Shown one piece after another: positions 3,612-54,749 of a stretch of DNA of 64,000 nt. Each line of letters opens with the position of its first letter. The stretch's first letter is position 1. The notes beneath the pieces were generated by a model. That model was not told the DNA's origin, did not search any database, and worked only from the letters and a program-made list of their open reading frames with translations. Source of the DNA: Nitrospirota bacterium (GTDB taxonomy: Bacteria; Nitrospirota; UBA9217); contig CAVTRN010000002.1 in the NCBI GenBank assembly GCA_963737155.1, positions 2,272,001 to 2,336,000 on the forward strand. The letters run 5' to 3'. The translations under genes were made by a program, and so were the position numbers.

Positions 3612-3789
3612 TTTAGGAGTCTCTGCTCGTCTCTCAAAGGATATTTTAGTAAAAAAACATGAGACTATAATTTACACCAATGTAGCACAATTTTGAAGAG
3701 GGTTTTACTACGCTATCGTTGGCATCGTAAGCATCTGGCGGGTATCGCAGGCGTATTGGATCTCAGTGTCTTTAGTAGGCTCTACTATC

Positions 3790-3916
3790 ATTGTTGAGTA
3801 TATCATTCTGGTGTTCATTTGTCCGCTCATCAGCGGTACTATCTTATTTGGTTGCTTCGCAACCAGCGCTTTAACCCCACCCTGAAGAAACAGGTGTTTT
3901 CGGCGCAGTAGGATAA
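3790..3916 (-). mobile_element. Degenerate IS200/IS605 left-end remnant
   Basis: Minus strand reads TTAT then cctactgcgccgaaaa, a degenerate cttcagggtgggg hairpin and the GGTTGCGAAGCAACC hairpin; similar to 22620-22700, 5199-5309 and 26849-26960. Confidence 0.55.
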
Positions 3917-3997
3917 CTTTGCACTTCCGCGTTGCCAATCAAGCTCCATGCCTATTTCTGTATATATCAATCATGCTGTCATACACGGCATACATAA

Positions 3998-4032
3998 ATA
4001 TACAGGCCGGGGGAATACCCCGGCCTGTATAT
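3998..4032 (-). terminator. Intrinsic terminator hairpin downstream of pilA copy 1
   Basis: 15-bp inverted repeat ATATACAGGCCGGGG-gaata-CCCCGGCCTGTATAT. Confidence 0.8.
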
Positions 4033-4064
4033 ATTTTATTTTGATACTATTGCTATTAAACTGA

Positions 4065-4640
4065 TTACAATGTTGCCCAGGCAGTCGTGCAAGTTCCGCC
4101 AGGAGCATTAACCAAGTTACTGGTAGTAGCAGTTCCAGATATGTCACCAACCTTTACCTCTGCGCCTAAGGCAGAACCAGTAGCATTTTGGGACCAATAT
4201 AGAGACGTCGTTGTGGAATCCATCCCATAACACCGATTTCCCGAAGTATTATCTGAAACTCCGGTATAAGTAACACCTGAACCATTCGCATTAATTAATA
4301 AAGAATCGTTTTGGGAAAGACCAAAATTTATGAACGTAGCAGAAGATGGAATTGTTGTACCATTAATTGCATTTTGAGCAACCATGGTGCTAACTGTTGC
4401 GTTGGTGATCACAGTTCCAACGGCACCATTACCTGCAGTCGATACATACGCCTGCCAATCAGAGTAGAAAGCTTCTTCCGAGGTGCGGGCATTGCGAAGG
4501 TCAGCCAATGCGGCGGCATTATAACCTTTCATACGATACTGAGAAAACTGAGGAATGGCGATAGCAGCCAAAATGGCAATGATGGCTACCACGATAAGGA
4601 GTTCGATAAGGGTAAAACCTTTGCTGTTTTTAATCTTCAT
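4065..4640 (-). CDS. pilA: Type IVa major pilin, copy 1 (191 aa)
   Basis: MKIKNSKG/FTLIELLIVVAII class III signal with E5; GGAGG RBS before the ATG at 4640; C-terminal Cys pair. Confidence 0.95.
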   Translation of the reverse strand: MKIKNSKGFTLIELLIVVAIIAILAAIAIPQFSQYRMKGYNAAALADLRNARTSEEAFYSDWQAYVSTAGNGAVGTVITNATVSTMVAQNAINGTTIPSSATFINFGLSQNDSLLINANGSGVTYTGVSDNTSGNRCYGMDSTTTSLYWSQNATGSALGAEVKVGDISGTATTSNLVNAPGGTCTTAWATL

Positions 4641-5040: not shown

Positions 5041-5197
5041 ATCGCCCATGACACACCTCATATGCGATATATCATCGGGAATAACGTCTGCTTTCGATAA
5101 GCGGATACCGTTGTTTTACGAACCAGGAGACCGGGAACGAAGCTCTATCAAGGGAAAACAAGAAAAGACGTTTAAATTCATTTTCCCATAATGACTC
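5041..5197 (+). pseudogene. Degenerate internal fragment of the upstream GGDEF gene
   Basis: Aligns with ~420-578 (e.g. ctttcgataagcggatacc-ttgtttta-gaaccagg-gaccgggaacg) with substitutions and frameshifts. Confidence 0.85.
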
Positions 5198-5390
5198 TTT
5201 CTGGTGTTCATTTGTCCGCTCATCAGCGGTACTATCTTATTTGGTTGCTTCGCAACCAGCGCTTTAACCCCACCCTGAAGAAACAGGTGTTTTCGGCGCA
5301 GTAGGATAACTTTGCACTTCCGCGTTGCCAATCAAGCTCCATGCCTATTTCTGTATATATCAGTCATACTGTCTATACACAGCATATATA

Positions 5391-5431
5391 AATATATACA
5401 GGCCGGGGGGATACCCCGGCCTGTATATATT
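5391..5431 (-). terminator. Intrinsic terminator hairpin downstream of pilA copy 2
   Basis: AATATATACAGGCCGGGG-ggata-CCCCGGCCTGTATATATT. Confidence 0.8.
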
Positions 5432-5460
5432 TTATTTTGATACTATTGCTATTAAACTGA

Positions 5461-6036
5461 TTACAATGTTGCCCAGGCAGTCGTGCACGTTCCGGCAGGA
5501 GCATTAACCAAGTTACTGGTAGTAGCAGTTCCAGATATGTCACCAACCATTACCACTGCGCCTAAGGCAGCGCCGGTAGCATTTTGGGACCAATATAGAG
5601 ACGTCGTTGTGGAATCCATCCCATAACACCGATTTCCCGAAGTATTATCTGAAACTCCGGTATAAGTAACACCTGAACCATTCGCATTAATTAATAAAGA
5701 ATCGTTTTGGGAAAGACCAAAATTTATGAACGTAGCAGAAGATGGAATTGTTGTACCATTAATTGCATTTTGAGCAACCATGGTGCTAACTGTTGCGTTG
5801 GTGATCACAGTTCCAACGGCACCATTACCTGCAGTCGATACATACGCCTGCCAATCAGAGTAGAAAGCTTCTTCCGAGGTGCGGGCATTGCGAAGGTCAG
5901 CCAATGCGGCAGCATTATAACCTTTCATACGATACTGAGAAAACTGAGGAATGGCGATAGCAGCCAAAATGGCAATGATGGCTACCACGATAAGGAGTTC
6001 GATAAGGGTAAAACCTTTGCTGTTTTTAATCTTCAT
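5461..6036 (-). CDS. pilA: Type IVa major pilin, copy 2 (191 aa)
   Basis: Same as copy 1 except 4 C-terminal amino-acid substitutions. Confidence 0.95.
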   Translation of the reverse strand: MKIKNSKGFTLIELLIVVAIIAILAAIAIPQFSQYRMKGYNAAALADLRNARTSEEAFYSDWQAYVSTAGNGAVGTVITNATVSTMVAQNAINGTTIPSSATFINFGLSQNDSLLINANGSGVTYTGVSDNTSGNRCYGMDSTTTSLYWSQNATGAALGAVVMVGDISGTATTSNLVNAPAGTCTTAWATL

Positions 6037-22219: not shown

Positions 22220-22630
22220 GTCTATAAAAAATTAAAACAAAACGTAGTAAGGCAGGCATTGTATATTCAATTTTAATTTTCAATTGGTCTTTGACACAAA
22301 GAATCGACAGCAAATATTCCTGATAAAACATTTTGATACACTGAAATCCATGTTTTCAGAAGTTTGCCGGAATTTCGAAGCTGAACTAATTGAATTAGAT
22401 GGTGTGCGCACCATGTTCATCTTATTGTTAGCTACCAGCCCAAAACACCATTCGTAAAAATAGTAAACAGCCTTAAAGGAATCTCTTCTCGATTAATGAA
22501 TAAAAGCATCCTGATCTCATTAATCATTACTTCAAGGGTTTTTTGGTCGCCCAGTTACTTCGCTGCATGCTGTGGTGGCGCCCCACAAGAGATTATTAAG
22601 CTAATCATCGAGCAGCGAAGAACACCCCTC
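22220..22630 (+). pseudogene. tnpA: IS200-type HUH/Y1 transposase pseudogene
   Basis: Broken translation GRHCIF..LVFDTKNR..VCRNFEAELIELDG..HVHLIVSY..VNSLKGISSRL..FWSPSYFAACCGGAP. Confidence 0.85.
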
Positions 22631-22823
22631 TGGCTGTTTCGCAATCAACGCCTTTATATCCCCGGCCCGAAGGCCTAGGTTTTGCGGTGCTAGTTGATAA
22701 ATCCATCGACCCATTGAGGCCGGTTTGTAGGCGTATTGCATCAACAGCGTGTCGTCATATTTTCATTTGTATGGCCGATGATCGTAATTCCCAACAACGC
22801 CGGCTCCAAATTAAACAGAGATC

Positions 22824-23902: not shown

Positions 23903-24406
23903 CTACAAACCGCCGCATTCAGTAGGGTCACCTTTGATCTTTTCTATTGCGTGAGAAAGCGCTGGCAGAACCACGGCGAGATTCTCACGCACGGCCCTTG
24001 GACTACCGGGGAGGTTAACAATGAGAGTCTGCTTTCTGATGCCGGCCATGGCGCGAGATATCATGGCATTCGGAGTTTTTTTGCAGCTCTCTGCACGCAT
24101 GGCTTCGGCCATTCCGGGGAGCTCTCGCTCAATGACCTCCCGCATTGCTTCGGGGGTAACGTCCCGCGGGGACACCCCAGTCCCCCCGGTAGTAAGAATA
24201 AGATCTACCTCTCCCGCGTCACAAAGGTGCTCAAGAACTTCGACAATACGTGTTTTCTCGTCCGGCAGAATTTCATAATGGACCACTGACGCGCCGATGG
24301 CGACGATCATTTCACGAATCACACAGCCGCTTTCGTCCATTCGTTCTCCAGTGGAACCTTTGTCGCTGAGCGTAATGATTGCCGTAAGTATCCCGGGAGG
24401 AGTCAT
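23903..24406 (-). CDS. mog: Molybdopterin adenylyltransferase (MogA/MoaB family)
   Basis: ITLSDK, TTGGTGVSPRDVTPEA, VNLPGSPRAVRE. Confidence 0.9.
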   Translation of the reverse strand: MTPPGILTAIITLSDKGSTGERMDESGCVIREMIVAIGASVVHYEILPDEKTRIVEVLEHLCDAGEVDLILTTGGTGVSPRDVTPEAMREVIERELPGMAEAMRAESCKKTPNAMISRAMAGIRKQTLIVNLPGSPRAVRENLAVVLPALSHAIEKIKGDPTECGGL

Positions 24407-24439
24407 GGCACGTCCTTTTCTGAAATGTATGACGGGACT

Positions 24440-25142
24440 ATATCCCTTTGGCCTGGTGGAGAATTAATTTCACTGAGCGATACTTTGACAAGGAAATAGC
24501 AAAGACCACCAGGAGCAATTCCCGAAAAGCATCCAGTCTTAATCAAAAACGGTCTCGTCAACGTTCCCACTTGCTTCACGGCTTAACCAAAGCCCTGGTC
24601 AGCGATGAAGAGTCTCACGGCGTCTCCACGGTCATCGTGGGGGACCTCAGAGGCATTAGAGATGGCAAAGACTTGGGAAACAGGGGGAACCAGCAACTCC
24701 ACAAATGTCCGTTTGAACGGACCATCAGAATACTCACTACAAAGCCAGGCTTAAAGGTATTCGCATTGTGAAAATAGATGAGGGCCACACGAGACAAGCC
24801 TGTTATATTTGTCATGCAAAGCGAAAATCCAATCGTGTGCATCGTGGCCTCTACATTTGCAACCAACGCGGCGCCGTAATAAATGCCGACGTAAACGGAG
24901 CAATCAACATTCTGAAAAGGTATCTCCCGGGGCAAATAAATGCTTCCTGGAGTAGCGGCTGCTTGGCAGCGCCCGCGGTTAACTGGTTTGCCTGGAGAAA
25001 TACCAGGCTAGCTGCATCAGCCCATGAGCCGGGGACGTGGCAAACATCTCTGCCGCATCAGCGAACAGGATCTACAGTGGCTCTCAGCAGTTGCAAAGCC
25101 TGATTCGAGAATCCTGGGTCTTCAGACCAGTGAGGATGTCAA
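24440..25142 (+). mobile_element. tnpB: IS200/IS605 remnant A: frameshifted, 5'-truncated tnpB plus right end / omegaRNA region
   Basis: VIVGDLRGIR, QQLH, IDEGHTRQACYIC, NADVNGAINIL; terminal hairpin cctgggtcttcagaccagtgagg then TGTCAA. Confidence 0.85.
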
Positions 25143-26524
25143 GCAATAACACCGCCCACAGTGATTTCGGGGATCCGCAGCGAGGGCTGTGCATCACTCA
25201 CCGGTGATCCCTGACCGTCTTTTCCGCAGGTCCCGATTGAGAAACCAAGGTCGGAGGCTACCCTGTCGATCGCTGCCAGCACCTGAGGACCGTTTCCCGT
25301 GAGAGTTGCACCCCGGACCGGCTCCCCAATTTTTCCGTTTTCTATCTGGTATCCTTCACTTACTTCAAACACAAAATCTCCATTAACTGTGTTTACCTGA
25401 CCGCCGCCCATCTTCCTAACAAATAGCCCTTTCGGCGTTTCACGGAGAATCTCATCGGCATCGGCCTCGCCCGGCAGAATCATGGTGTTCGTCATACGCG
25501 TTATCGGGCGGTGCTTGTAGGACTCACGTCTGCCGTTGCCTGTAGAACGTGTCCCATCCTTCATTGCTGTCAATTTATCATGCATAAACGTTTTCAGCAC
25601 GCCTTTCTCAACCAGGATTGTGCGTTCTGCATCGGTCCCCTCGTCATCGAAACGGAAAGACCCTCGTTTGCCCGGGAGTGTGGCATCATCTACAACAGAC
25701 ACGAGCGGCGATGCTATTAGCTCGCCGAGCCGCTTCGAATACACAGATAAGCCCGACTGGGCAAGATCGGCTTCAAGCCCATGTCCTACTGCTTCATGGA
25801 TCATGGTCCCTCCGGCCTCAGAGGACAGGATGACCGGCATCCTCCCTGCAGGTGCCTTTCGTGCTGAGAGCATCATCACCGCCCGACGAGCCGCTTTTTC
25901 CGCTATTGCATCAAGGGCTTCCCGGTCAAACAGCTCCATCCCCGCATTGCCGCCCACTGGCTCATATCCAGTTTGGACAACATCTCCATCAGCAGCAACG
26001 ACATGAACAAGTGCAGTGAGATACAAACGCTCATCATCTGCAATCCTGCTGTCCGAAGAAGCTATCGTTACCTGCTGACGATGTTCACGGTAAGTAACCA
26101 AAGCCTGCCTTATGCGTCCATCAAGCAGACGGGCAATCCGATCCGCATTGAGCACCATCTGAACTTTATGACTCGTATCAACCGTTTCCGGCTTTTTTTC
26201 AATTCTGTAATTCACTTGCGGCTTTATTTTACATAAGTCGATTGTGGAGATATTGGCTCCACCGACTGCCGCATGCCTTACGGCATCTGCTAGTTCAAGA
26301 AGGGAAGTAGTGGTGAGGTCGTTGGTGTATGCATAGGCAGTGCGCTGTCCGAACAATAGCCGGACACCGGCGCCACAGTCGATACCGGACACTACTTTTT
26401 CCATCCGGCTGTCTTCGCAGACAAGGGAAAGCGTTGTGCTTCGTTCTACGAAGATATCAGCGTACTCTCCTCCGTTACTGAGCGCTTTTTTTAAAACTGC
26501 AGCATAGTCAATAGCAACGTTCAT
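25139..26524 (-). CDS. tldD: TldD/PmbA-family metalloprotease
   Basis: IHEAVGHGLEAD, STGNGRRES, RMTNT, GTCGKDGQ, VSDAQPSL; GGGGAG RBS. Confidence 0.93.
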   Translation of the reverse strand: MNVAIDYAAVLKKALSNGGEYADIFVERSTTLSLVCEDSRMEKVVSGIDCGAGVRLLFGQRTAYAYTNDLTTTSLLELADAVRHAAVGGANISTIDLCKIKPQVNYRIEKKPETVDTSHKVQMVLNADRIARLLDGRIRQALVTYREHRQQVTIASSDSRIADDERLYLTALVHVVAADGDVVQTGYEPVGGNAGMELFDREALDAIAEKAARRAVMMLSARKAPAGRMPVILSSEAGGTMIHEAVGHGLEADLAQSGLSVYSKRLGELIASPLVSVVDDATLPGKRGSFRFDDEGTDAERTILVEKGVLKTFMHDKLTAMKDGTRSTGNGRRESYKHRPITRMTNTMILPGEADADEILRETPKGLFVRKMGGGQVNTVNGDFVFEVSEGYQIENGKIGEPVRGATLTGNGPQVLAAIDRVASDLGFSIGTCGKDGQGSPVSDAQPSLRIPEITVGGVIA

Positions 26525-26848
26525 TTTTTCTCCCCGTCGAATCAATCCGAACTGATTCGTCTAACCTTGACTTTACAACATCGACTATCCCGCGATTGAA
26601 TTCTGCGGCTGATTACAAATCTTTTGCATCTTATAGTAACAAGGCCTGCAAGTTATTTCAATTTATATTTTTAGTCATGGTATATTGCGCAACGTATCCG
26701 GTTTCAATCGTGTCCTTCAACCCCAAACAAGAATTAAAGCAACAGCCGACCAAATTCGTTCTTCTAGGCAAAGCTGCGGCCTCAACTCAGCAAACAGAAC
26801 TGAATGATTGTCAATTTCTCCGCTTTCCGGCTTCAATCCTTCTGTGCT

Positions 26849-26960
26849 TTGTTGAGTATATCATACTACTGAATTTTTTCTCGCTCAGCGGTAAGATTTT
26901 ATCTAGTTGCTTCACAACCAGCGTCTTATATCCGTGCCCTGCTGAGACGGGGGGAAATTC
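26849..26960 (-). mobile_element. Degenerate IS200/IS605 left-end remnant
   Basis: ttgttgagtatatcat..cagcggta..gttgcttcacaaccagcg..ttatatcc, similar to 3791-3916 and 22620-22700. Confidence 0.55.
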
Positions 26961-27354
26961 AATAATATTTTTTAACGGTTCCTTGTAGTATCGGGACGAG
27001 AATCCCTGCTATCAGAGGCAAATGGGTCACCTCATTAATTGATTGGTTTTACAGGAAAAATTGGCGCTCTTGCCTTGGTTGGCCCCGGAACGCATAATTG
27101 CAGGAATATCATATAATCGAGAACCGAACAAGAGGTCTCCTCTACACCACCAATATTTTTGTAGCGAAGCCGCCTTCACATATAAGGCAATTGGTGATGG
27201 GACAATCATGCCTAATGGATTTATCTCTACTGAAAAAGCCTCACATAAAGCTCGTTCTAGCTGAACCAACGCTGCGCGCTCAATTTTCCTCCAGAGAACA
27301 TCGGGTTTCCTTTTCCTCCTTGACTTCCATCCTAGGTTGGCTGTAAATTATACT

Positions 27355-31240: not shown

Positions 31241-31280
31241 CCGAATATTCATGATCAGCCTGCAACGTGATAACCCCAGT

Positions 31281-31332
31281 TTATAAATCAGCGCCGTAAA
31301 AATCTCGGCCTTCAGGCCGGAGAGGATGTCAA
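31281..31332 (+). mobile_element. Minimal ~48-bp IS200/IS605 derivative (PATE-like)
   Basis: TTAT, then aaatcagcgccgtaaaa (left-end signature), one hairpin ctcggccttcaggccggag, and gatgTCAA (right-end signature). Confidence 0.65.
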
Positions 31333-41569: not shown

Positions 41570-42398
41570 GGCAATTACGGTCGCATCAATCCTGGGGGGT
41601 GGCGCAGCGAAGGTAAGATCGCAGCATTCGGATGCGCTCATGTTACTTATCATGGCAGATGGTGGTGGTAGCATTGTCTCTTCGGTTGCAGCTTTGCAAA
41701 TTGGGGTTGATTAAGTTTGCGGATGAAATAGGCTCGTCTATTTCCGTAAGTCATTTTCGCCTGGCACCAGTAAATGGAACAAAATTGAAGCTCACTAATT
41801 ATCGTTCATCTCCTCGAATGGGCGCTACGCGGAGCCGCTTCGGATTACGATACTATTGTTAATATGATTTCTCGCACAGCGACTTTTATATCCACAATGG
41901 TCGTGAGGGAATTTAGGGACAACAGAGAAGGCAATGATTGCGAAAACTGCCGGAACCAATAGCTCCGTCCACGGCCGTTCAGCCGCATCGTCAAGATGAT
42001 CACGTACAAGACTCAAAAGCATGCACATTATGAAAATAGCGGATAAAACAAGAGACATACTTGTTGCATGTGCACAATAAGACAAAACCCAGTCGTGCAC
42101 ATACTGGCTCTAAAGTTTGCAAACAATGCGGCGAAGAAATCATTTCCTACGTGAACAGCGCAATCAACATTCTCAAGATGTCTCTCCCAAGCGAATAAGT
42201 GTCTACTGAAGCCGTAACTGCTTGGCGCAGCCTACGAGCAACCGGTTTGTCTTTAGAAAAAACACGCCTGGAATGTCAGCAATAAACCGTGGACTTGGGA
42301 AATATCTCTGCCGCATCTGCAACTAGTATCAACAGTAGCTCTCTGGCTAACTAGACACTTATTCGGGGATACTCGGCTTCTGAACGGCAAAATGTCAT
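41570..42398 (+). mobile_element. tnpB: IS200/IS605 remnant B: highly degenerate tnpB plus right end
   Basis: Colinear with remnant A (VVREFRDNREG, PFSRIVKMITYK, CKQCG..VNSAINILK, and the 3' non-coding tail with atctctgccgcatc); ends in atgTCA. Confidence 0.7.
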
Positions 42399-42727
42399 TT
42401 GAAGTTCTTAAGAATGTACTCTGCTATTTTGTGAGCATCGTGGTCCGACAGGGTCTTCTCGTCAAATTTGGTCATGCCTGGACCGGGGTTTCTCACAATG
42501 TGCATAATGTCGGCAGCGGTCATAACATGGTTCGCCTCGCGATCTTTTTTATGAAGCGTTTTCGCCGGGTTTATAATATTACCGCCATCAGGATGGCAAA
42601 CTTTGCAGTTTGCGGCGAATAACGCTGCACCTGACTGTGCAGCCGCGTTCTCAGCTACAGCATATGCAGCGCTCAAACAGATGACCACCAACGCAACAAA
42701 CCCGAGCAACACATTTTTCTTAACCAT
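42395..42727 (-). CDS. Cytochrome c6-like class I cytochrome
   Basis: GAALFAANCKVCHPDGGNII.PAKTL; distal Met (GMTKF). Confidence 0.9.
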   Translation of the reverse strand: MVKKNVLLGFVALVVICLSAAYAVAENAAAQSGAALFAANCKVCHPDGGNIINPAKTLHKKDREANHVMTAADIMHIVRNPGPGMTKFDEKTLSDHDAHKIAEYILKNFK

Positions 42728-44672: not shown

Positions 44673-45539
44673 TCAACGATCATTTTCATCTATGCTCTTT
44701 GACTGGACGACAAGGTAGCCGGAAAAAAGAATCAGCACGCCGCCGGCTAGGGCAGTCAACGCCGGTTTTTCTGAGAGGAGCAGATAGGCCATTGGGATCG
44801 CCGACAGCGGTTCCATGTACCCCAGAATAGCGGCGCGCTGCGCCATCACCTTCCTTAGAGCATTGTAGTAGAGAAGCGGTGCAAGTGTGGAGTGCAACAA
44901 TCCCGTAATCGTCAGGAGGGCCAAGATGCGAAGGTTCAAGTGATACTCAATTAAAAACGCCGCTGGTGCAAGCACAACCGTCGTTAGCCAGGGGAGAACA
45001 ACAACCGCCTTGTGATGCATCAACATCCGGCTTAATTTTCTTGAAAAGAGGATGATGAAGGCGTAAGCCACTCCGGAGGCCGTGCCAGCAATAATACCGG
45101 ACCGATGAGGCCCGCCGGTACTCAGGCCCCCATTGGCAACAACAATCATAATCATCCCGAGCAGTGCGATGGGCAGTGAAAGGATGGTTACTTTTAACAG
45201 ACGTTCGGATATAACAAAGGGAGCGAGCAAAGCTACGAATAGGGGCGCTGTATAGTGAGTGAAAACAGCATTTGCCACTGTGGTATGACCTAATGCGTAA
45301 AAATAGGTGAGGTTATTCGTAATGGAAGAAAGCGCAAGTAAACCCAAGACCCATCGGACTTTTGAAACGCCTTCGAGACTCATTTCTCCCCGAATGGTGA
45401 GATACGCTGGCACTGATAAGCTGGCAATCAGGGACGTGTAAAATAAAACGATAACGGGAGGCAGGGCCAGCCAGCGGATCATCGGGCCCCATGTGCTCCA
45501 GATCAGCATTGCGGCAATGATTTTCAGGTAGTTGTTCAT
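44673..45539 (-). CDS. DMT/EamA-family transporter
   Basis: About 10 TM helices; HYTAPLFV, GYMEPL. Confidence 0.88.
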   Translation of the reverse strand: MNNYLKIIAAMLIWSTWGPMIRWLALPPVIVLFYTSLIASLSVPAYLTIRGEMSLEGVSKVRWVLGLLALSSITNNLTYFYALGHTTVANAVFTHYTAPLFVALLAPFVISERLLKVTILSLPIALLGMIMIVVANGGLSTGGPHRSGIIAGTASGVAYAFIILFSRKLSRMLMHHKAVVVLPWLTTVVLAPAAFLIEYHLNLRILALLTITGLLHSTLAPLLYYNALRKVMAQRAAILGYMEPLSAIPMAYLLLSEKPALTALAGGVLILFSGYLVVQSKSIDENDR

Positions 45540-50378: not shown

Positions 50379-50945
50379 ATGAAGCTAAGCGTATGGGCAA
50401 AGCAACAAGGTATAACCTATCAAGCGGCATGGAAATGGTGGAAGGCTGGCAAGCTGCCGGTTGAGGCTGAGCAGATGCCTACCGGAACCATCATTATAAA
50501 AGAGCAGAAAACTGCCCAAGGTTCTGTTGCTATTTATGCCCGGGTATCCAGTCATGACCAAAAGAAAGACCTGGACGGGCAGCTCGGGCGGCTTTCCGTA
50601 TATGCCGCTTCCAAAGGGTTGTCAGTTTCAAAAGCGGTGTCTGAGGTTGGATCTGGTCTTAATGGGCACAGGCCAAAACTCATGAAGCTGCTTGCCGACT
50701 CCAACGTCAGTATTATTGTCGCCTTGCATCGTGACCGGCTTATGCGGTTTGGATCTGAGTATGTAGAATCGGCACTTCGAGCTCAAGGTCGTCAACTTAT
50801 TATTGTAGACCAGACCGAGCTAAAGGACGATCTGGTGCAGGACATGATTGAAGTATTGACATCGTTTTGCGCAAGGCTCTACGGACGCCGGTCAGCGGCC
50901 AATAAAGCAAAAAAAGCTCTGGAGGCCATGGAGAATGGCAAGTAA
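50379..50945 (+). CDS. tnpA: IS607 serine recombinase (MerR-like HTH plus resolvase domain)
   Basis: MKLSVWAKQQGITYQAAWKW, IYARVSS, GSGLN, RDRLMRFG, DLVQD, ARLYGRRS. Confidence 0.95.
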   Translation: MKLSVWAKQQGITYQAAWKWWKAGKLPVEAEQMPTGTIIIKEQKTAQGSVAIYARVSSHDQKKDLDGQLGRLSVYAASKGLSVSKAVSEVGSGLNGHRPKLMKLLADSNVSIIVALHRDRLMRFGSEYVESALRAQGRQLIIVDQTELKDDLVQDMIEVLTSFCARLYGRRSAANKAKKALEAMENGK

Positions 50946-52398
50946 TAAGGATAAAATGGGCAAGAGCGGCAAAAGTGAAGCACTTTCTTTTACCGCTCAA
51001 ACTTTGCTGATTGACATGTCTTACCTGGACACAAAGAAGTCTCTTTATCATGTTCTTGACGATATCGGCGACTCATACGGGCACATCAAACGCTCTCTCT
51101 TTAAAGACAGCGTTCGTTCCGGCAACAAACCCATTTCATTCAAAAATGAGTATCTTGTCAGGTATGGTATCACCGCCCGGCAGTTTAACGCTATCCGCTA
51201 CGATCTTGACGGCAATATCAGCTCCGCGGTTGAGGTATTAAAACTACGGATTGAAAAGCTCGAGCACAAAATAAAATCTGCGAGAAAATGGATTAGAACC
51301 AAAGAGAACAGTATCATTGACATACGCAAAGACACGGAATTGTCCGGACATGAGAAAACGACCAGCGTGAAGTCTCTCCGGTTTGCGGTCCACAACAAAA
51401 AACGGAAGCTCCATTCATCGGTGCAGAAACTGGAAAAGCTGAAGTACGATTTGGACAAAGGCCGAATCAGGATTTGCTTTGGGACAAAGAAACTTTTCCA
51501 CAAGCAGTTTAACCTTTCTGAAAACGATTATAAATCCCACAATAACTGGCTGTCTGCCTGGAAGGCTGCCCGAAGCTCTTCATCGTTTTGTCTGGGATCG
51601 AAGGATGAAACGGCCGGCAACCAGACCTGCACGCTTGGCGTCGACGGGTCGCTCAGGATACGGGTCCCAAACTATCTTGCCAAAAAATACGGTAAACACA
51701 TCATGGTGCCTACCGTAACATATCCTTACGGGCAGGAATATATTGAGCAGGCACTCCTGCGCGGCCAGGCAATCACCCACCGGTTTGTCCGTGGCGAGAA
51801 GGGTTGGTATCTGTATTCTTCATTTGATATCCCCCAAAGAGAAACAGTAACCGGGAAACCGCAAGAAATCGGATGTATTGGCGTAGATGCAAACGAAAAA
51901 GAGATTGCTGTTTCCGAGACTGACCGGTTCGGCAATCTTGTCTGGCACACAACGTATCCTGCATGTATAAAAGACAGAACCACGGAACAGACCAAGGCAA
52001 CTTACGGTGATATCTGCGTCGGCATTATCGACCGGTCAATTAAAACCGGGAAACCCGTCGCTCATGAAACTCTTGACTTCGAAAAGAAGAAAGCATCTCT
52101 TAAGGAACAGGGAGTAACGTATGCGCGGATGCTGTCCGGGTTCGCCTATTCCACCTTTTTAAACATGCTTGACCGCAGAGCATTTAAGGCAGGCGTCGGT
52201 GTGCTCTCCGTGAATCCTGCTTACACATCCGTTATCGGCAGAAACAATTATATGTCTCATTATGGCATTTCGCTGCATGAAGCAGCGGCGCTTGCTATTG
52301 CGAGAAGAGTTCAAGGATATTCCGAGTCTCCCATACCAGGCAGAACCGCCTCCCCTCTACCTGTAAGGAATCGAGAGGAGCACATCTGGAAGTTTTAG
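50935..52398 (+). CDS. tnpB: IS607-associated TnpB, zinc-finger-less type
   Basis: RuvC-I IGVDAN, RuvC-II HETLDF, VNPAYTS, HEAAALAIARR; possible premature TAG near the C-terminus. Confidence 0.88.
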   Translation: MASNKDKMGKSGKSEALSFTAQTLLIDMSYLDTKKSLYHVLDDIGDSYGHIKRSLFKDSVRSGNKPISFKNEYLVRYGITARQFNAIRYDLDGNISSAVEVLKLRIEKLEHKIKSARKWIRTKENSIIDIRKDTELSGHEKTTSVKSLRFAVHNKKRKLHSSVQKLEKLKYDLDKGRIRICFGTKKLFHKQFNLSENDYKSHNNWLSAWKAARSSSSFCLGSKDETAGNQTCTLGVDGSLRIRVPNYLAKKYGKHIMVPTVTYPYGQEYIEQALLRGQAITHRFVRGEKGWYLYSSFDIPQRETVTGKPQEIGCIGVDANEKEIAVSETDRFGNLVWHTTYPACIKDRTTEQTKATYGDICVGIIDRSIKTGKPVAHETLDFEKKKASLKEQGVTYARMLSGFAYSTFLNMLDRRAFKAGVGVLSVNPAYTSVIGRNNYMSHYGISLHEAAALAIARRVQGYSESPIPGRTASPLPVRNREEHIWKF

Positions 52399-52739
52399 AG
52401 CAGGATGAAGACTCGGGGAGGTTGTGGAAATCATCACAGTCTCTATCAACGACGGTCCTTACAGGACTCCCCAGGCTGCGCTGAATTGCAGAAGAAGCCA
52501 TCACCCCGTCGACAGCGCAATTCTCCGGGCCACCTGCCAGCAGCAGTCTTGCTGAAAAGGCGCCAGAAGCAATCCCGATCAGCAAACAACGGGACTTGGG
52601 CGAATCAGGGCGGGAATCCCTGACGTTAACCGGCAGCAGCACTGTTCGGCTGCCGTCATAGTTATGAGAAATAAAATACTATGTTTTTAGGAACGGTGGG
52701 CAATATCTTGACAAAAAAATAGCAAAGATCACCAAGAGC

Positions 52740-53022
52740 AACACCAGATAAACATCCGGGCTTAAATGCTGACGAAATCGGAGCAATCAGCATCCTGAAA
52801 AGGTCTCGCCCGGGGCAAATAAATATCTCCCGGAGCGGTGGCCGCTTGGCACAGCCTGCAGTTAACCGGTTTGCCTGGAGGAATACCTGGCCAGCTACAT
52901 AGACCATAAGCGGGAACGCGTCAAACATCTCTGCCACATCTACGAACAGAATCTGCAGCGGCTCCCAGCAGTTGCAAAGCCTGATTCCGGAATCCTCGGC
53001 ATTCAGGCTGGGGGGATTTCAT
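52740..53022 (+). mobile_element. IS200/IS605 remnant C: tnpB 3' tail plus right end / omegaRNA region
   Basis: Clearly similar to 24880-25142 (aaatgctgacgaaatcggagcaatcagcatcctgaaaagg...cagcagttgcaaagcctgatt...); hairpin cctcggcattcaggctggggg then ttTCA. Confidence 0.85.
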
Positions 53023-54749
53023 TTGGTCTGGTCTTCTATCTCTTTGGACAAACGCGCAGGATCAAAGGGCTGCAGTGTGGCATTAAAGCTTGCGATACCG
53101 GCAGGCGGCTGAAGGTAACGAATCTCGAATGGAACCTTATCCTCTGGAGGGATGACCGTCCCCTGCCCCTGAAGAACATTTGCTTTCATTTGTTGGACAA
53201 GTGCTCCACGTTTAGCGAGAATGGCGTAATCACTCCTCGAATAAAGCTGTTTTCCGTCCAACAGTTTTATTTTGTTTATCACCATCCCCCTTGCATCGTA
53301 GACGTCTACGACAACCAACCATGCCGACCGTGGCTTGTTTGTTGAATTTTCAACAACCCCTGATATAAGCAGGTCGCCATTCGGCTCCAGAGACCCTGCA
53401 GCATTCGTAATCCGCAGGCCTCCCGTCGAGATCATATGCGCCGCGGCATCGTTAGATGACTGCTCCGGTGACTGCAGGAACACATATGCACCGAAGCCGC
53501 CCAATACCAAAATAATGGCAGCGGCTACCATGACCATTACCCTTTTGCCAGACCGGTGTGATTTGGTCGGTGACGCACCTATTACAGGAGAGAAAGCTGG
53601 TGACGGGTGATGGGAAGATTCTTTTTTTAACGCCTGTGAAGCGGGACCCCCGGCCGGTTTGGACCGATGCACCGCTTGTGGCCCGGTCTGGAAGCGAGGA
53701 ATCTTTTGAACAGATTGTTGCCCGACATTGGAAATTGCAGATGGTTTCGGCTCCGGCCGGGTCTCCGGTGGAGATATTGACGCCGGCATTACTGCAGACC
53801 CTATTTCAGGTTCTGGATTTTGTTTATGATGGGCCGTTCCGGAAGTTTCGCTTGGCGATGCAATGTCCGATTGCAGTTCAGGCACTGCAGTTGGATCTTC
53901 AGACATTTCTGTTTTCAGTTCCTGTTGAGGTTCCTGCGGTTCTTCGGGTTCCGTCTGAGATACCTCTGTTTTTTCGCCCGTAATTGTCACAATAGGTTCC
54001 GGTTCAGCTGCAGTAATCGAATCCTTAACTGTTGTCTCTGTATCCGGTTTCAGCTGAGGTTCAGACTTTTGCTCAGGCGGAGTTTGAACCGCCTCAAGGG
54101 CCTCGCTGACCGCTGCAATCCCCGCTTCTGGCGCAACCATCATTTGCAAAGTTTCTGTTTGCGGTTCCGTTTGAAGTTCAAGCTGCTGCTCAAAAGCAGG
54201 ATGAACATTCTCTCCGACAGCTGAGGCCGGCGTCATGTCCGATTCCGATTCAGATATTTTCCCCTCTTCAGATTGGGCAATATCAGACTTCTGGCTCTCC
54301 GGTTCTATCTGAGGAGGGAATTCAGTCTCACGCTCCGGAATCGGCTTAACCCGAGAAACAGCCTCCTCTAAGGGGGAACGATCTGGCAGGGATGTATCTT
54401 CGTTTTCAAGGCGGAAATAAGACATCGGAGACTTTAAAAAATCATTTACCGTTGTCCCCATGGTTGGTTCAGTGGCCGTTTTCCCCGAGATCGTACTTAT
54501 TGGTGTTGTTGCAGCCTCAGCAGTTTGTGCCACTGTCAGTCCAATTTCAGATGTTGCCTGACGTGGTTTATTTTCGAACAGGTCTAGCGGGGAAACAGCG
54601 GATTTAGATAGAGTATAGGTCGAAAAATCCTCTATAGTGATTCTTACATATACCCCACATCGTGTACAAACAAACTTGACGCCCTTGCCACTGATCTTAT
54701 CATCGGAGACACGAAATAACTTATGACAATTCCCACACCGGACTTCCAT
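53019..54749 (-). CDS. Zinc-ribbon (MJ0042-type) / DUF3426-like bitopic membrane protein with a long acidic Pro/Glu-rich linker
   Basis: MEVRCGNC..VKFVCTRC; ~350-aa low-complexity linker; one TM helix; periplasmic domain LLISGVVENS. Confidence 0.75.
   Translation of the reverse strand: MEVRCGNCHKLFRVSDDKISGKGVKFVCTRCGVYVRITIEDFSTYTLSKSAVSPLDLFENKPRQATSEIGLTVAQTAEAATTPISTISGKTATEPTMGTTVNDFLKSPMSYFRLENEDTSLPDRSPLEEAVSRVKPIPERETEFPPQIEPESQKSDIAQSEEGKISESESDMTPASAVGENVHPAFEQQLELQTEPQTETLQMMVAPEAGIAAVSEALEAVQTPPEQKSEPQLKPDTETTVKDSITAAEPEPIVTITGEKTEVSQTEPEEPQEPQQELKTEMSEDPTAVPELQSDIASPSETSGTAHHKQNPEPEIGSAVMPASISPPETRPEPKPSAISNVGQQSVQKIPRFQTGPQAVHRSKPAGGPASQALKKESSHHPSPAFSPVIGASPTKSHRSGKRVMVMVAAAIILVLGGFGAYVFLQSPEQSSNDAAAHMISTGGLRITNAAGSLEPNGDLLISGVVENSTNKPRSAWLVVVDVYDARGMVINKIKLLDGKQLYSRSDYAILAKRGALVQQMKANVLQGQGTVIPPEDKVPFEIRYLQPPAGIASFNATLQPFDPARLSKEIEDQTK

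Follow-up and report, generated by a model that had tools for sequence, protein, structure and literature searches.

Apparent exchange of host stop codons by a decayed tnpB-only IS200/IS605 family in a Nitrospirota genome

In a 64-kb stretch of the genome of a Nitrospirota bacterium (contig CAVTRN010000002.1; hereafter the window), three decayed copies of an IS200/IS605 element each terminate on the stop codon of a convergent gene, and the right end (RE) of the element provides that stop. We propose that insertion of this element 3′ of TTAT, with TCAA as its own terminal bases, swaps the A-TAA stop of the host gene for a TGA of the element, that the exchange is nearly neutral, and that the inserted copies then decay; we assign this account as a whole a probability of about 0.85. 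A preliminary description of the window had pointed to three such REs, ending at 25142, 42398, and 53022, and inspection of the sequence bears it out, all three giving the convergent genes their TGA. The window belongs to a genome of 4.84 Mb in two contigs, C1 and C2 (G000), which we compared with its congeners G001, G003, G009, G010, and G011.

Stop codons at occupied and empty sites

Remnant 1 (24431–25142, plus strand), recognized from Pfam and homology, consists of the 3′ half of a frame-broken, 5′-truncated tnpB followed by the RE. Its two open reading frame (ORF) pieces match OrfB_IS605 (24448–24771) and the Cas12f1-like TNB domain (24768–25103), and it corresponds to positions 791–1492 of an intact 1492-bp relative (locus L069) at 78% identity. 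The left end (LE) is absent: homology to the longest copy in the same genome begins at 24431, inside tnpB, within the RuvC-I region and near its motif. The RE closes with GGATGTCAA at 25142, and the TCA of its terminal TCAA (25139–25142, plus strand) serves, on the opposite strand, as the TGA stop of tldD, read as tca at 25139–25141. The tldD gene (25139–26545, minus strand) is a 468-aa ORF with Pfam PmbA_TldD domains 1–3 and last codons GCT TGA, and orthologues are present in 30/30 relatives searched (31/31 genomes when G000 is counted). Remnant 2 (41891–42398, plus strand), found with the RE profile, holds the 3′ part of tnpB and the RE, matches positions 974–1467 of the reference element at 70% identity, and supplies the stop of a 110-aa cytochrome c gene (42395–42727, minus strand; ORF and Pfam) that ends AAA TGA. 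Remnant 3 (52697–53022, plus strand; RE profile) is an internally deleted tnpB piece with the RE, matching positions 1233–1491 of the reference element and including repeat families D3, D4, and D7; it supplies the stop of a 576-aa zinc-ribbon protein gene (53019–54749, minus strand; ORF and Pfam), which also ends AAA TGA. The terminal TCAA given in the preliminary description is thus present in remnant 1 and in most ends of the family, whereas remnants 2 and 3 end TCAT.

The evidence that carries the proposed exchange comes from orthologous sites that lack the element (the names phosphoglucomutase-like, MgtE-like, radical-SAM-like, and aminotransferase-like used below are our own provisional gene labels). 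For seven insertions that lie on a stop codon, which we call stop-docked, the orthologous empty sites in congeners read xxA TAA, and together with the left flank of one further copy they support the swap of xxA-TAA for xxT-TGA that had been predicted. The cytochrome c orthologues end AAA TAA in G003 and G011, and those of the zinc-ribbon gene end AAA TAA in G003 and AAG TAA in G011. The phosphoglucomutase-like gene ends CAA TAA in the empty G003 orthologue, which is 95% identical, and CAT TGA in the occupied G011 copy; the MgtE-like gene reads ATA TAA when empty and ATT TGA when occupied. At L115, two relatives have AAA TAA against AAT TGA in the occupied gene, and at L120 GTA TAA is replaced by GTT TGA. 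The seventh insertion is at L126, where two relatives have AAA TAA and the occupied gene now reads ATT TGA. The cleanest case is L101 in G011, where a 47-nt two-ended mini-element lies between ...AGT GC and ATAA CAGGGG..., so that the left flank retains ATAA. Without the mini-element the site reads AGT GCA TAA CAGGGGCACGGG, collinear with AGT AAA TAA CAGGTGCATGGG in G000. In these empty-site cases the docked genes equal their orthologues in length and hence are not truncations.

Chance adjacency of REs and gene ends has in its favor that intergenic spacers are short and that TTAT occurs often, at 45,191 sites genome-wide. However, RE and stop codon coincide to the base, in frame, at 15 sites across seven genomes, and an origin by chance is contradicted by empty sites that read xxA TAA at the same codon and by the old ATAA kept at L101, which makes this explanation extremely improbable.

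Because CAA TAA becomes CAT TGA (Gln to His) in the phosphoglucomutase-like gene, related swaps occur at other sites, and the left flank of L101 is preserved, the alignments place cleavage after TTAT and assign the final A of TCAA to the element. The other conceivable register, in which the element ends in TCA, inserts after TTA, and leaves the last host codon unchanged, would explain the TCAT ends without mutation, and both window copies on AAA codons do read AAA TGA as it predicts. Against it stand the CAA-to-CAT change, the AAA-to-AAT change at L115, and the GTA-to-GTT change at L120, the retention of ATAA rather than a bare TAA at L101, and the A that follows TCA in most of the 33 ends of the family in G000. 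We rejected the TTA/TCA register on the Gln-to-His and Lys-to-Asn cases and consider it very improbable.

With cleavage after TTAT, the stop exchange would proceed as follows. A Y1 transposase acting in trans would insert the single-stranded element 3′ of TTAT without duplication, as shown for IS608 and, we infer, here. TTAT being A-TAA on the other strand, every gene that ends xxA TAA would offer a target on its stop, with tnpB placed convergently. After insertion the gene would read xx plus T TGA, that is, its length would be kept, its stop replaced in frame, and the third base of its last codon changed from A to T, while the old TAA would be left behind at the LE flank. This base change would be silent for four-fold codons and Ile, and would otherwise turn Lys into Asn, Gln into His, and so on. 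Such insertions would survive because they are nearly neutral; the element would then decay, and the terminal bases carrying the stop could not be lost. In G000, each of the five stop-docked copies has lost its LE side and retains the terminal bases that provide the stop. The earlier claim that the host gene is unharmed therefore stands for frame and length, but not for the last residue, since Gln-to-His and Lys-to-Asn changes do occur.

The AAT TGA ending, the Lys-to-Asn form, is seen at L115, in the intact copies L069 and L164, and at C2:689351; for the host gene of L069, orthologues were found in none of the five genomes searched. Remnants 2 and 3 sit on AAA codons, and the last A of the element may since have mutated to T (TCAT), which would have restored Lys. 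We infer that this change would reflect later selection on the host protein, or drift, after the death of the element.

Ends, target, and gene content of the family

The remnants are what is left of a tnpB-only (IS1341-type) IS200/IS605 element that measures about 1.49 kb when intact and is an ordinary new member of that known family. Its intact two-ended form is seen in the relative at L069 (171–1662, 1492 bp), which reads TTTAT|LE ... TCAA|, encodes a 453-aa tnpB ORF, and shows no target duplication. The L069 TnpB scores 208 bits with NCBIfam NF040570 guided_TnpB (cut-off 100), carries Pfam OrfB_IS605 and Cas12f1-like TNB domains, and has TnpB and Cas12f chains as its PDB matches. No tnpA lies inside the 1492-bp element.

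The RE profile finds 33 REs in G000, most of which read ...GGAGGATGTCAA. TTAT, often as TTTAT, precedes 15 of the 18 aligned LEs in G000 (the remaining three follow TTGT, CTGT, and GTAT), and in the relatives, where 17 loci were examined, all ten LEs located by motif search follow NTTAT, in agreement with the target proposed in the preliminary description. That description had also assumed a common family for both kinds of end. The assumption holds, because two-ended copies exist: a frameshifted 1.45-kb copy in G000 (C2:2821020..2819575), L069, and the mini-elements at L101 and at 31285–31332 of the window. The flanks of both L069 and L101 lack a target duplication, and taking the L101 element out of the sequence yields a collinear empty site. 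Subterminal hairpins are visible at both aligned ends; about 18 nt separate TTAT from the left hairpin, and a few nt lie between the right hairpin and TCAA. In the 64-kb window, a search for inverted repeats of 40 nt or longer gave no pair.

The mini-element in the window (31285–31332, plus strand; RE profile and folding) is a 48-nt, two-ended, terminal-only form resembling a palindrome-associated transposable element (PATE). It comprises the start of the LE, one hairpin into which it folds, and GGATGTCAA, is preceded by TTTAT (31280–31284), and lies between genes, off any stop codon. It constitutes a fourth RE in the window, overlooked in the preliminary description.

Most of these traits have been described, in whole or in part, in known elements. 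IS608 (ISHp608) of Helicobacter pylori inserts 3′ of TTAC without duplication and has TCAA as its last four bases; it is cleaved on the left 19 nt 5′ to the hairpin there, and its TCAA follows the right hairpin at a distance of 10 nt (PMC3201880, accessible text). The family studied here resembles IS608, as far as that text goes, in its tetranucleotide target, TCAA terminus, and hairpin geometry; unlike IS608, it uses TTAT, has no tnpA, and has unrelated hairpin sequences. For ISGst2 of Geobacillus stearothermophilus (TnpB2), the parts of the preprint available describe a transposon-adjacent motif TTTAT, a transposon-encoded motif TTCAC, recognition by DNA guides, and related PATEs without genes (bioRxiv 10.1101/2023.03.14.532601); ISGst2 differs, according to the same parts, in having a tnpA partner shown to be active. 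ISDge10 TnpB, known as a genome-editing nuclease, is reported in the accessible portion of its source to use the 4-nt motif TTAT (PMC13507860), and it is this motif that it has in common with our family. In Haloquadratum, repeat-mediated core deletions shrink an IS605-type element of about 1500 bp to a 52-bp terminal-only form, as described in the part of that report at hand (PMC3119063); the 47–48-nt terminal-only forms at L101 and 31285–31332 are similar in kind, whereas organisms and sequences differ. Going by these partly available sources, the TTAT/TTTAT targets (ISDge10, ISGst2), the TCAA terminus (IS608), and terminal-only PATEs (Haloquadratum) are already known. The stop swap itself follows neatly from the motifs of the family and has apparently gone unremarked. 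In the literature within reach of our search, which did not extend to subscription papers and supplements, we found no statement of stop-codon exchange by IS200/IS605 elements, and the phrase "stop codon" is absent from the main text of the preprint on ISGst2 by Meers et al. (bioRxiv 10.1101/2023.03.14.532601).

G000 also contains a second TnpB family with 516–527-aa frames and conserved ends, represented by C2:1184367-1185950, C2:2134798-2136348, and three partial copies, whose right end reads ...GAGTTCAT or ...GGGAGAGTTCAT. At C1:1199482-1201266, a 595-aa open frame that is transposase-like by eye interrupts another remnant of the tnpB family described above, of which the pieces lie at C1:1199233-1199314 and 1201316-1201914.

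Distribution around gene ends

Five of the 33 REs in G000 supply the stop to an opposite-strand ORF of at least 100 aa (110–1001 aa), namely tldD, the zinc-ribbon gene, the cytochrome c gene, a 456-aa gene at C2:689351, and a 1001-aa gene at C2:2133203; an 85-aa ORF at C2:2227134, doubtful as a gene, was left out of this count. In the congeners 7/51 RE rows are stop-docked, and two further genomes add 3/9 new rows, one of which (L165, a 180-codon frame) is doubtful. In the seven genomes together, 15/93 REs close an open frame of 100 codons or more with their stop, where about 3–5% would be expected; three additional frames of 81–88 codons also end at the RE stop, two of them with orthologues and the third at L163. 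Rows with an ill-defined terminus (L070, L088, L121, L127, L132, L138) were kept in the denominators.

As a null we took the usable TTAT sites, that is, those at which insertion would leave every ORF of 100 aa or more intact, as judged from rough ORF calls. Of these, 3.4% fall on an A-TAA stop (a cruder count put stops at about 5%), 8.3% are 0–65 nt past the end of a convergent gene, and 9.1% are 0–65 nt ahead of a co-directional gene. Exact placement on a stop (5/33) exceeds its null share with a binomial P = 0.005, and for the 15/93 in all seven genomes P is 6e-7 if the null is set at 3.4%, 6e-5 if it is 5%, and 0.04 if it is 10%. An excess is also seen just behind the stop: nine of the 33 REs in G000 follow the end of a convergent gene at 0–65 nt (P = 0.001), and three lie before a co-directional gene. 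When stops and the 0–65 nt zone are pooled, 14/33 REs are found where 11.7% are expected (P = 8e-6), and within this pooled zone the share on the stop itself is 5/14 against an expected 29% (P = 0.39). The enrichment over TTAT sites anticipated earlier is thus present for all sites taken together, but inside the zone the stop takes the share expected. Since the zone is enriched and the stop share within it is as expected, the excess belongs to the zone and not to the codon. In our reading, the copies that survive are concentrated at, or immediately past, the 3′ ends of convergent genes, positions at which an insertion does the least damage. Among the TTAT sites available there is the stop codon, where the TGA that the RE supplies in frame makes an insertion harmless. 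Of a dedicated preference for the stop codon, beyond the motif and this general excess at gene ends, we saw no evidence.

Several observations weigh against the proposed stop exchange or bear on it only in part. The ancestor predicted for tldD, GCA TAA, is not seen among the orthologues in relatives: the two closest end TCC TAA and others GCA TAG or GCA TGA. At L126 two relatives read AAA TAA and the occupied gene reads ATT TGA instead of the expected AAT, requiring one extra substitution. Three orthologues of the 456-aa gene (C2:687969-689351) end 4–5 residues earlier (...NMA, ...HLA, ...HLV), and the insertion there may sit on a lineage-specific extended end. At L135 the C-termini differ from those of the orthologues, and for the radical-SAM-like gene the nearest relative reads CGA TGA, not TAA. 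In the 1001-aa gene the RE end is now TTAT and the gene ends CTA TAA, which requires two later substitutions; its orthologues end CTA TAA in two cases and TTG or CTG TAA and CTG TAG in three others. Docking recurs in two genes: the aminotransferase-like gene carries an RE on its stop in both G003 and G011, and the 1001-aa gene does so in G000 and again at L179. In the latter, the REs lie on the stop at C2:2133203 and at L179:3537, apparently one codon apart (CTA TAA vs TTA CAT TGA), and represent either independent events or an old shared insertion. The null was derived from crude ORF calls, and the genomes compared are relatives of one another. Finally, no copy of the family in G000 has an intact tnpB, and none of 29 Y1 transposase loci in the five congeners has these ends within about 1.5 kb as a cognate TnpA would; therefore, the family is non-autonomous, and in G000 it is extinct.

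Separately, G000 carries nine near-identical IS200 elements of 549–550 bp encoding a 147-aa TnpA, eight of them intact and one with an in-frame stop. The nine loci, among them C1:884139, C2:657666, and C2:1327967, all follow TTTAT and end ...GGGGTTATTTAC(T). These copies look active; their target motif is that of the dead tnpB family, but they have different hairpins.

The preliminary description had further suggested that the end hairpin serves as a terminator, explaining a persistence of right ends after tnpB decays. More broadly, the RE hairpin could be kept as a terminator, another cis element, or a small RNA for the convergent gene, and well-kept copies do have a G+C-rich subterminal hairpin just behind the new stop. 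The evidence goes the other way: the hairpin is not followed by a T-run on the host-sense strand, the three window hairpins show no folding advantage over shuffled sequences (z = +1.5, +0.7, −0.6), and a terminator scan calls none at the RE. Moreover, tldD is followed by a co-oriented gene, where termination is not obviously wanted. The supposed excess of right ends is not found either, LE-like fragments being at least as numerous as REs genome-wide (43 hits to the LE profile, which may also catch related subfamilies, vs 32 to the RE profile). We consider retention of the hairpin for such a role improbable.

A different possibility is that landing on stops is itself an adaptation, TTAT and TCAA having been selected as in-register reverse-complement stops, so that elements land on stops beyond what the motif and tolerance of the site provide. 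Exact overlap with stops is about four times the uniform TTAT null in G000, with 15/93 overall, and among 14 presumably young copies, those whose RE is preceded by an open frame of 400 codons or more, two firmly and up to four in all lie on stops. In our reading of the accessible descriptions, the motif pairs of IS608 (TTAC/TCAA) and ISGst2 (TTTAT/TTCAC) also hold TTA and TCA in register. However, the stop share inside the gene-end zone is ordinary, 15/93 reaches only P = 0.04 under a 10% null, and the likeness of end and target motifs has a mechanistic cause in that both pair with similar DNA guides, as stated in the portions of the literature available. None of the nine active TTTAT-using IS200 copies lies on a stop, a sample too small to decide. 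We therefore regard adaptive landing as possible and somewhat unlikely. The wider proposal that stop-codon mimicry is a general, selected property of much of IS200/IS605, given the in-register pairs TTAT/TCAA, TTAC/TCAA, and TTTAT/TTCAC, seems to us doubtful, and the ISDra2 target TTGAT, which as given in the source text at hand holds no stop complement, argues that mimicry is not universal and likewise speaks against adaptive landing.

If mimicry were true, gene ends would be scar-free landing pads at which TAA is exchanged for TGA, and the TnpB guide would automatically be antisense to the last codons of the host gene; from the geometry alone, a putative omegaRNA guide of the docked copies would be antisense to the 3′ end of the host mRNA, as the preliminary description had suggested. 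Were mimicry also selected, it would be a third strategy for limiting harm, beside IStron splicing and Tn7-type docking. Tn7 docks behind conserved genes, which limits harm. IStrons, in which IS607/IS605 is combined with a group I intron, limit harm to the interrupted gene by splicing of the transcript, according to the accessible parts of two reports (bioRxiv 10.1101/2023.11.20.567912; PMC4227781); here, by comparison with those descriptions, the DNA insertion itself keeps the reading frame whole and no splicing is involved. The empty sites show a simple way in which transposons of a very common class can settle within a gene's last codon almost free of cost. For annotation, this means that in docked genes transposon DNA makes up the stop and at times the final residue as well. 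It bears on how tnpB remnants at gene ends are read, on the fitness cost of IS200/IS605 spread, and on why the target motifs of these elements look as they do.

Neighboring genes and further fragments in the window

The gene downstream of tldD encodes a molybdopterin-binding MogA/MoaB-like protein (23903–24406, minus strand; Pfam MoCF_biosynth), and remnant 1 fills the spacer between the two genes almost entirely. In several relatives, a gene with a similar start to the MogA/MoaB-like gene lies about 50–110 nt past the tldD stop. Upstream of tldD, a diverged LE-like fragment (26849–26982, minus strand) matches the LE profile and has TTAT at its projected boundary. Another LE-like fragment (22606–22704, minus strand; LE profile match) adjoins a Y1 transposase (TnpA) remnant with in-frame stops and Y1_Tnp matches (22263–22612, plus strand).

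An LE fragment that follows TTAT lies at 3756–3926 (minus strand; LE profile, tandem families D1/D2), with a second copy at 5196–5319. The window carries a tandem duplication here (3803–4289 and 5196–5685) with a period of about 1.39 kb and 96–98% identity, each unit containing one LE fragment of the family.

Among RNA families, only tRNA was found in the window (Rfam, gathering threshold). Just upstream of remnant 3, a 487-aa ORF (50935–52398, plus strand) has only a weakly TnpB-like C-terminus, scoring 39.9 bits with NF040570, below the cut-off, and giving no Pfam match; its paralogues lie at C2:1397197-1398960 and C2:183106-183969.
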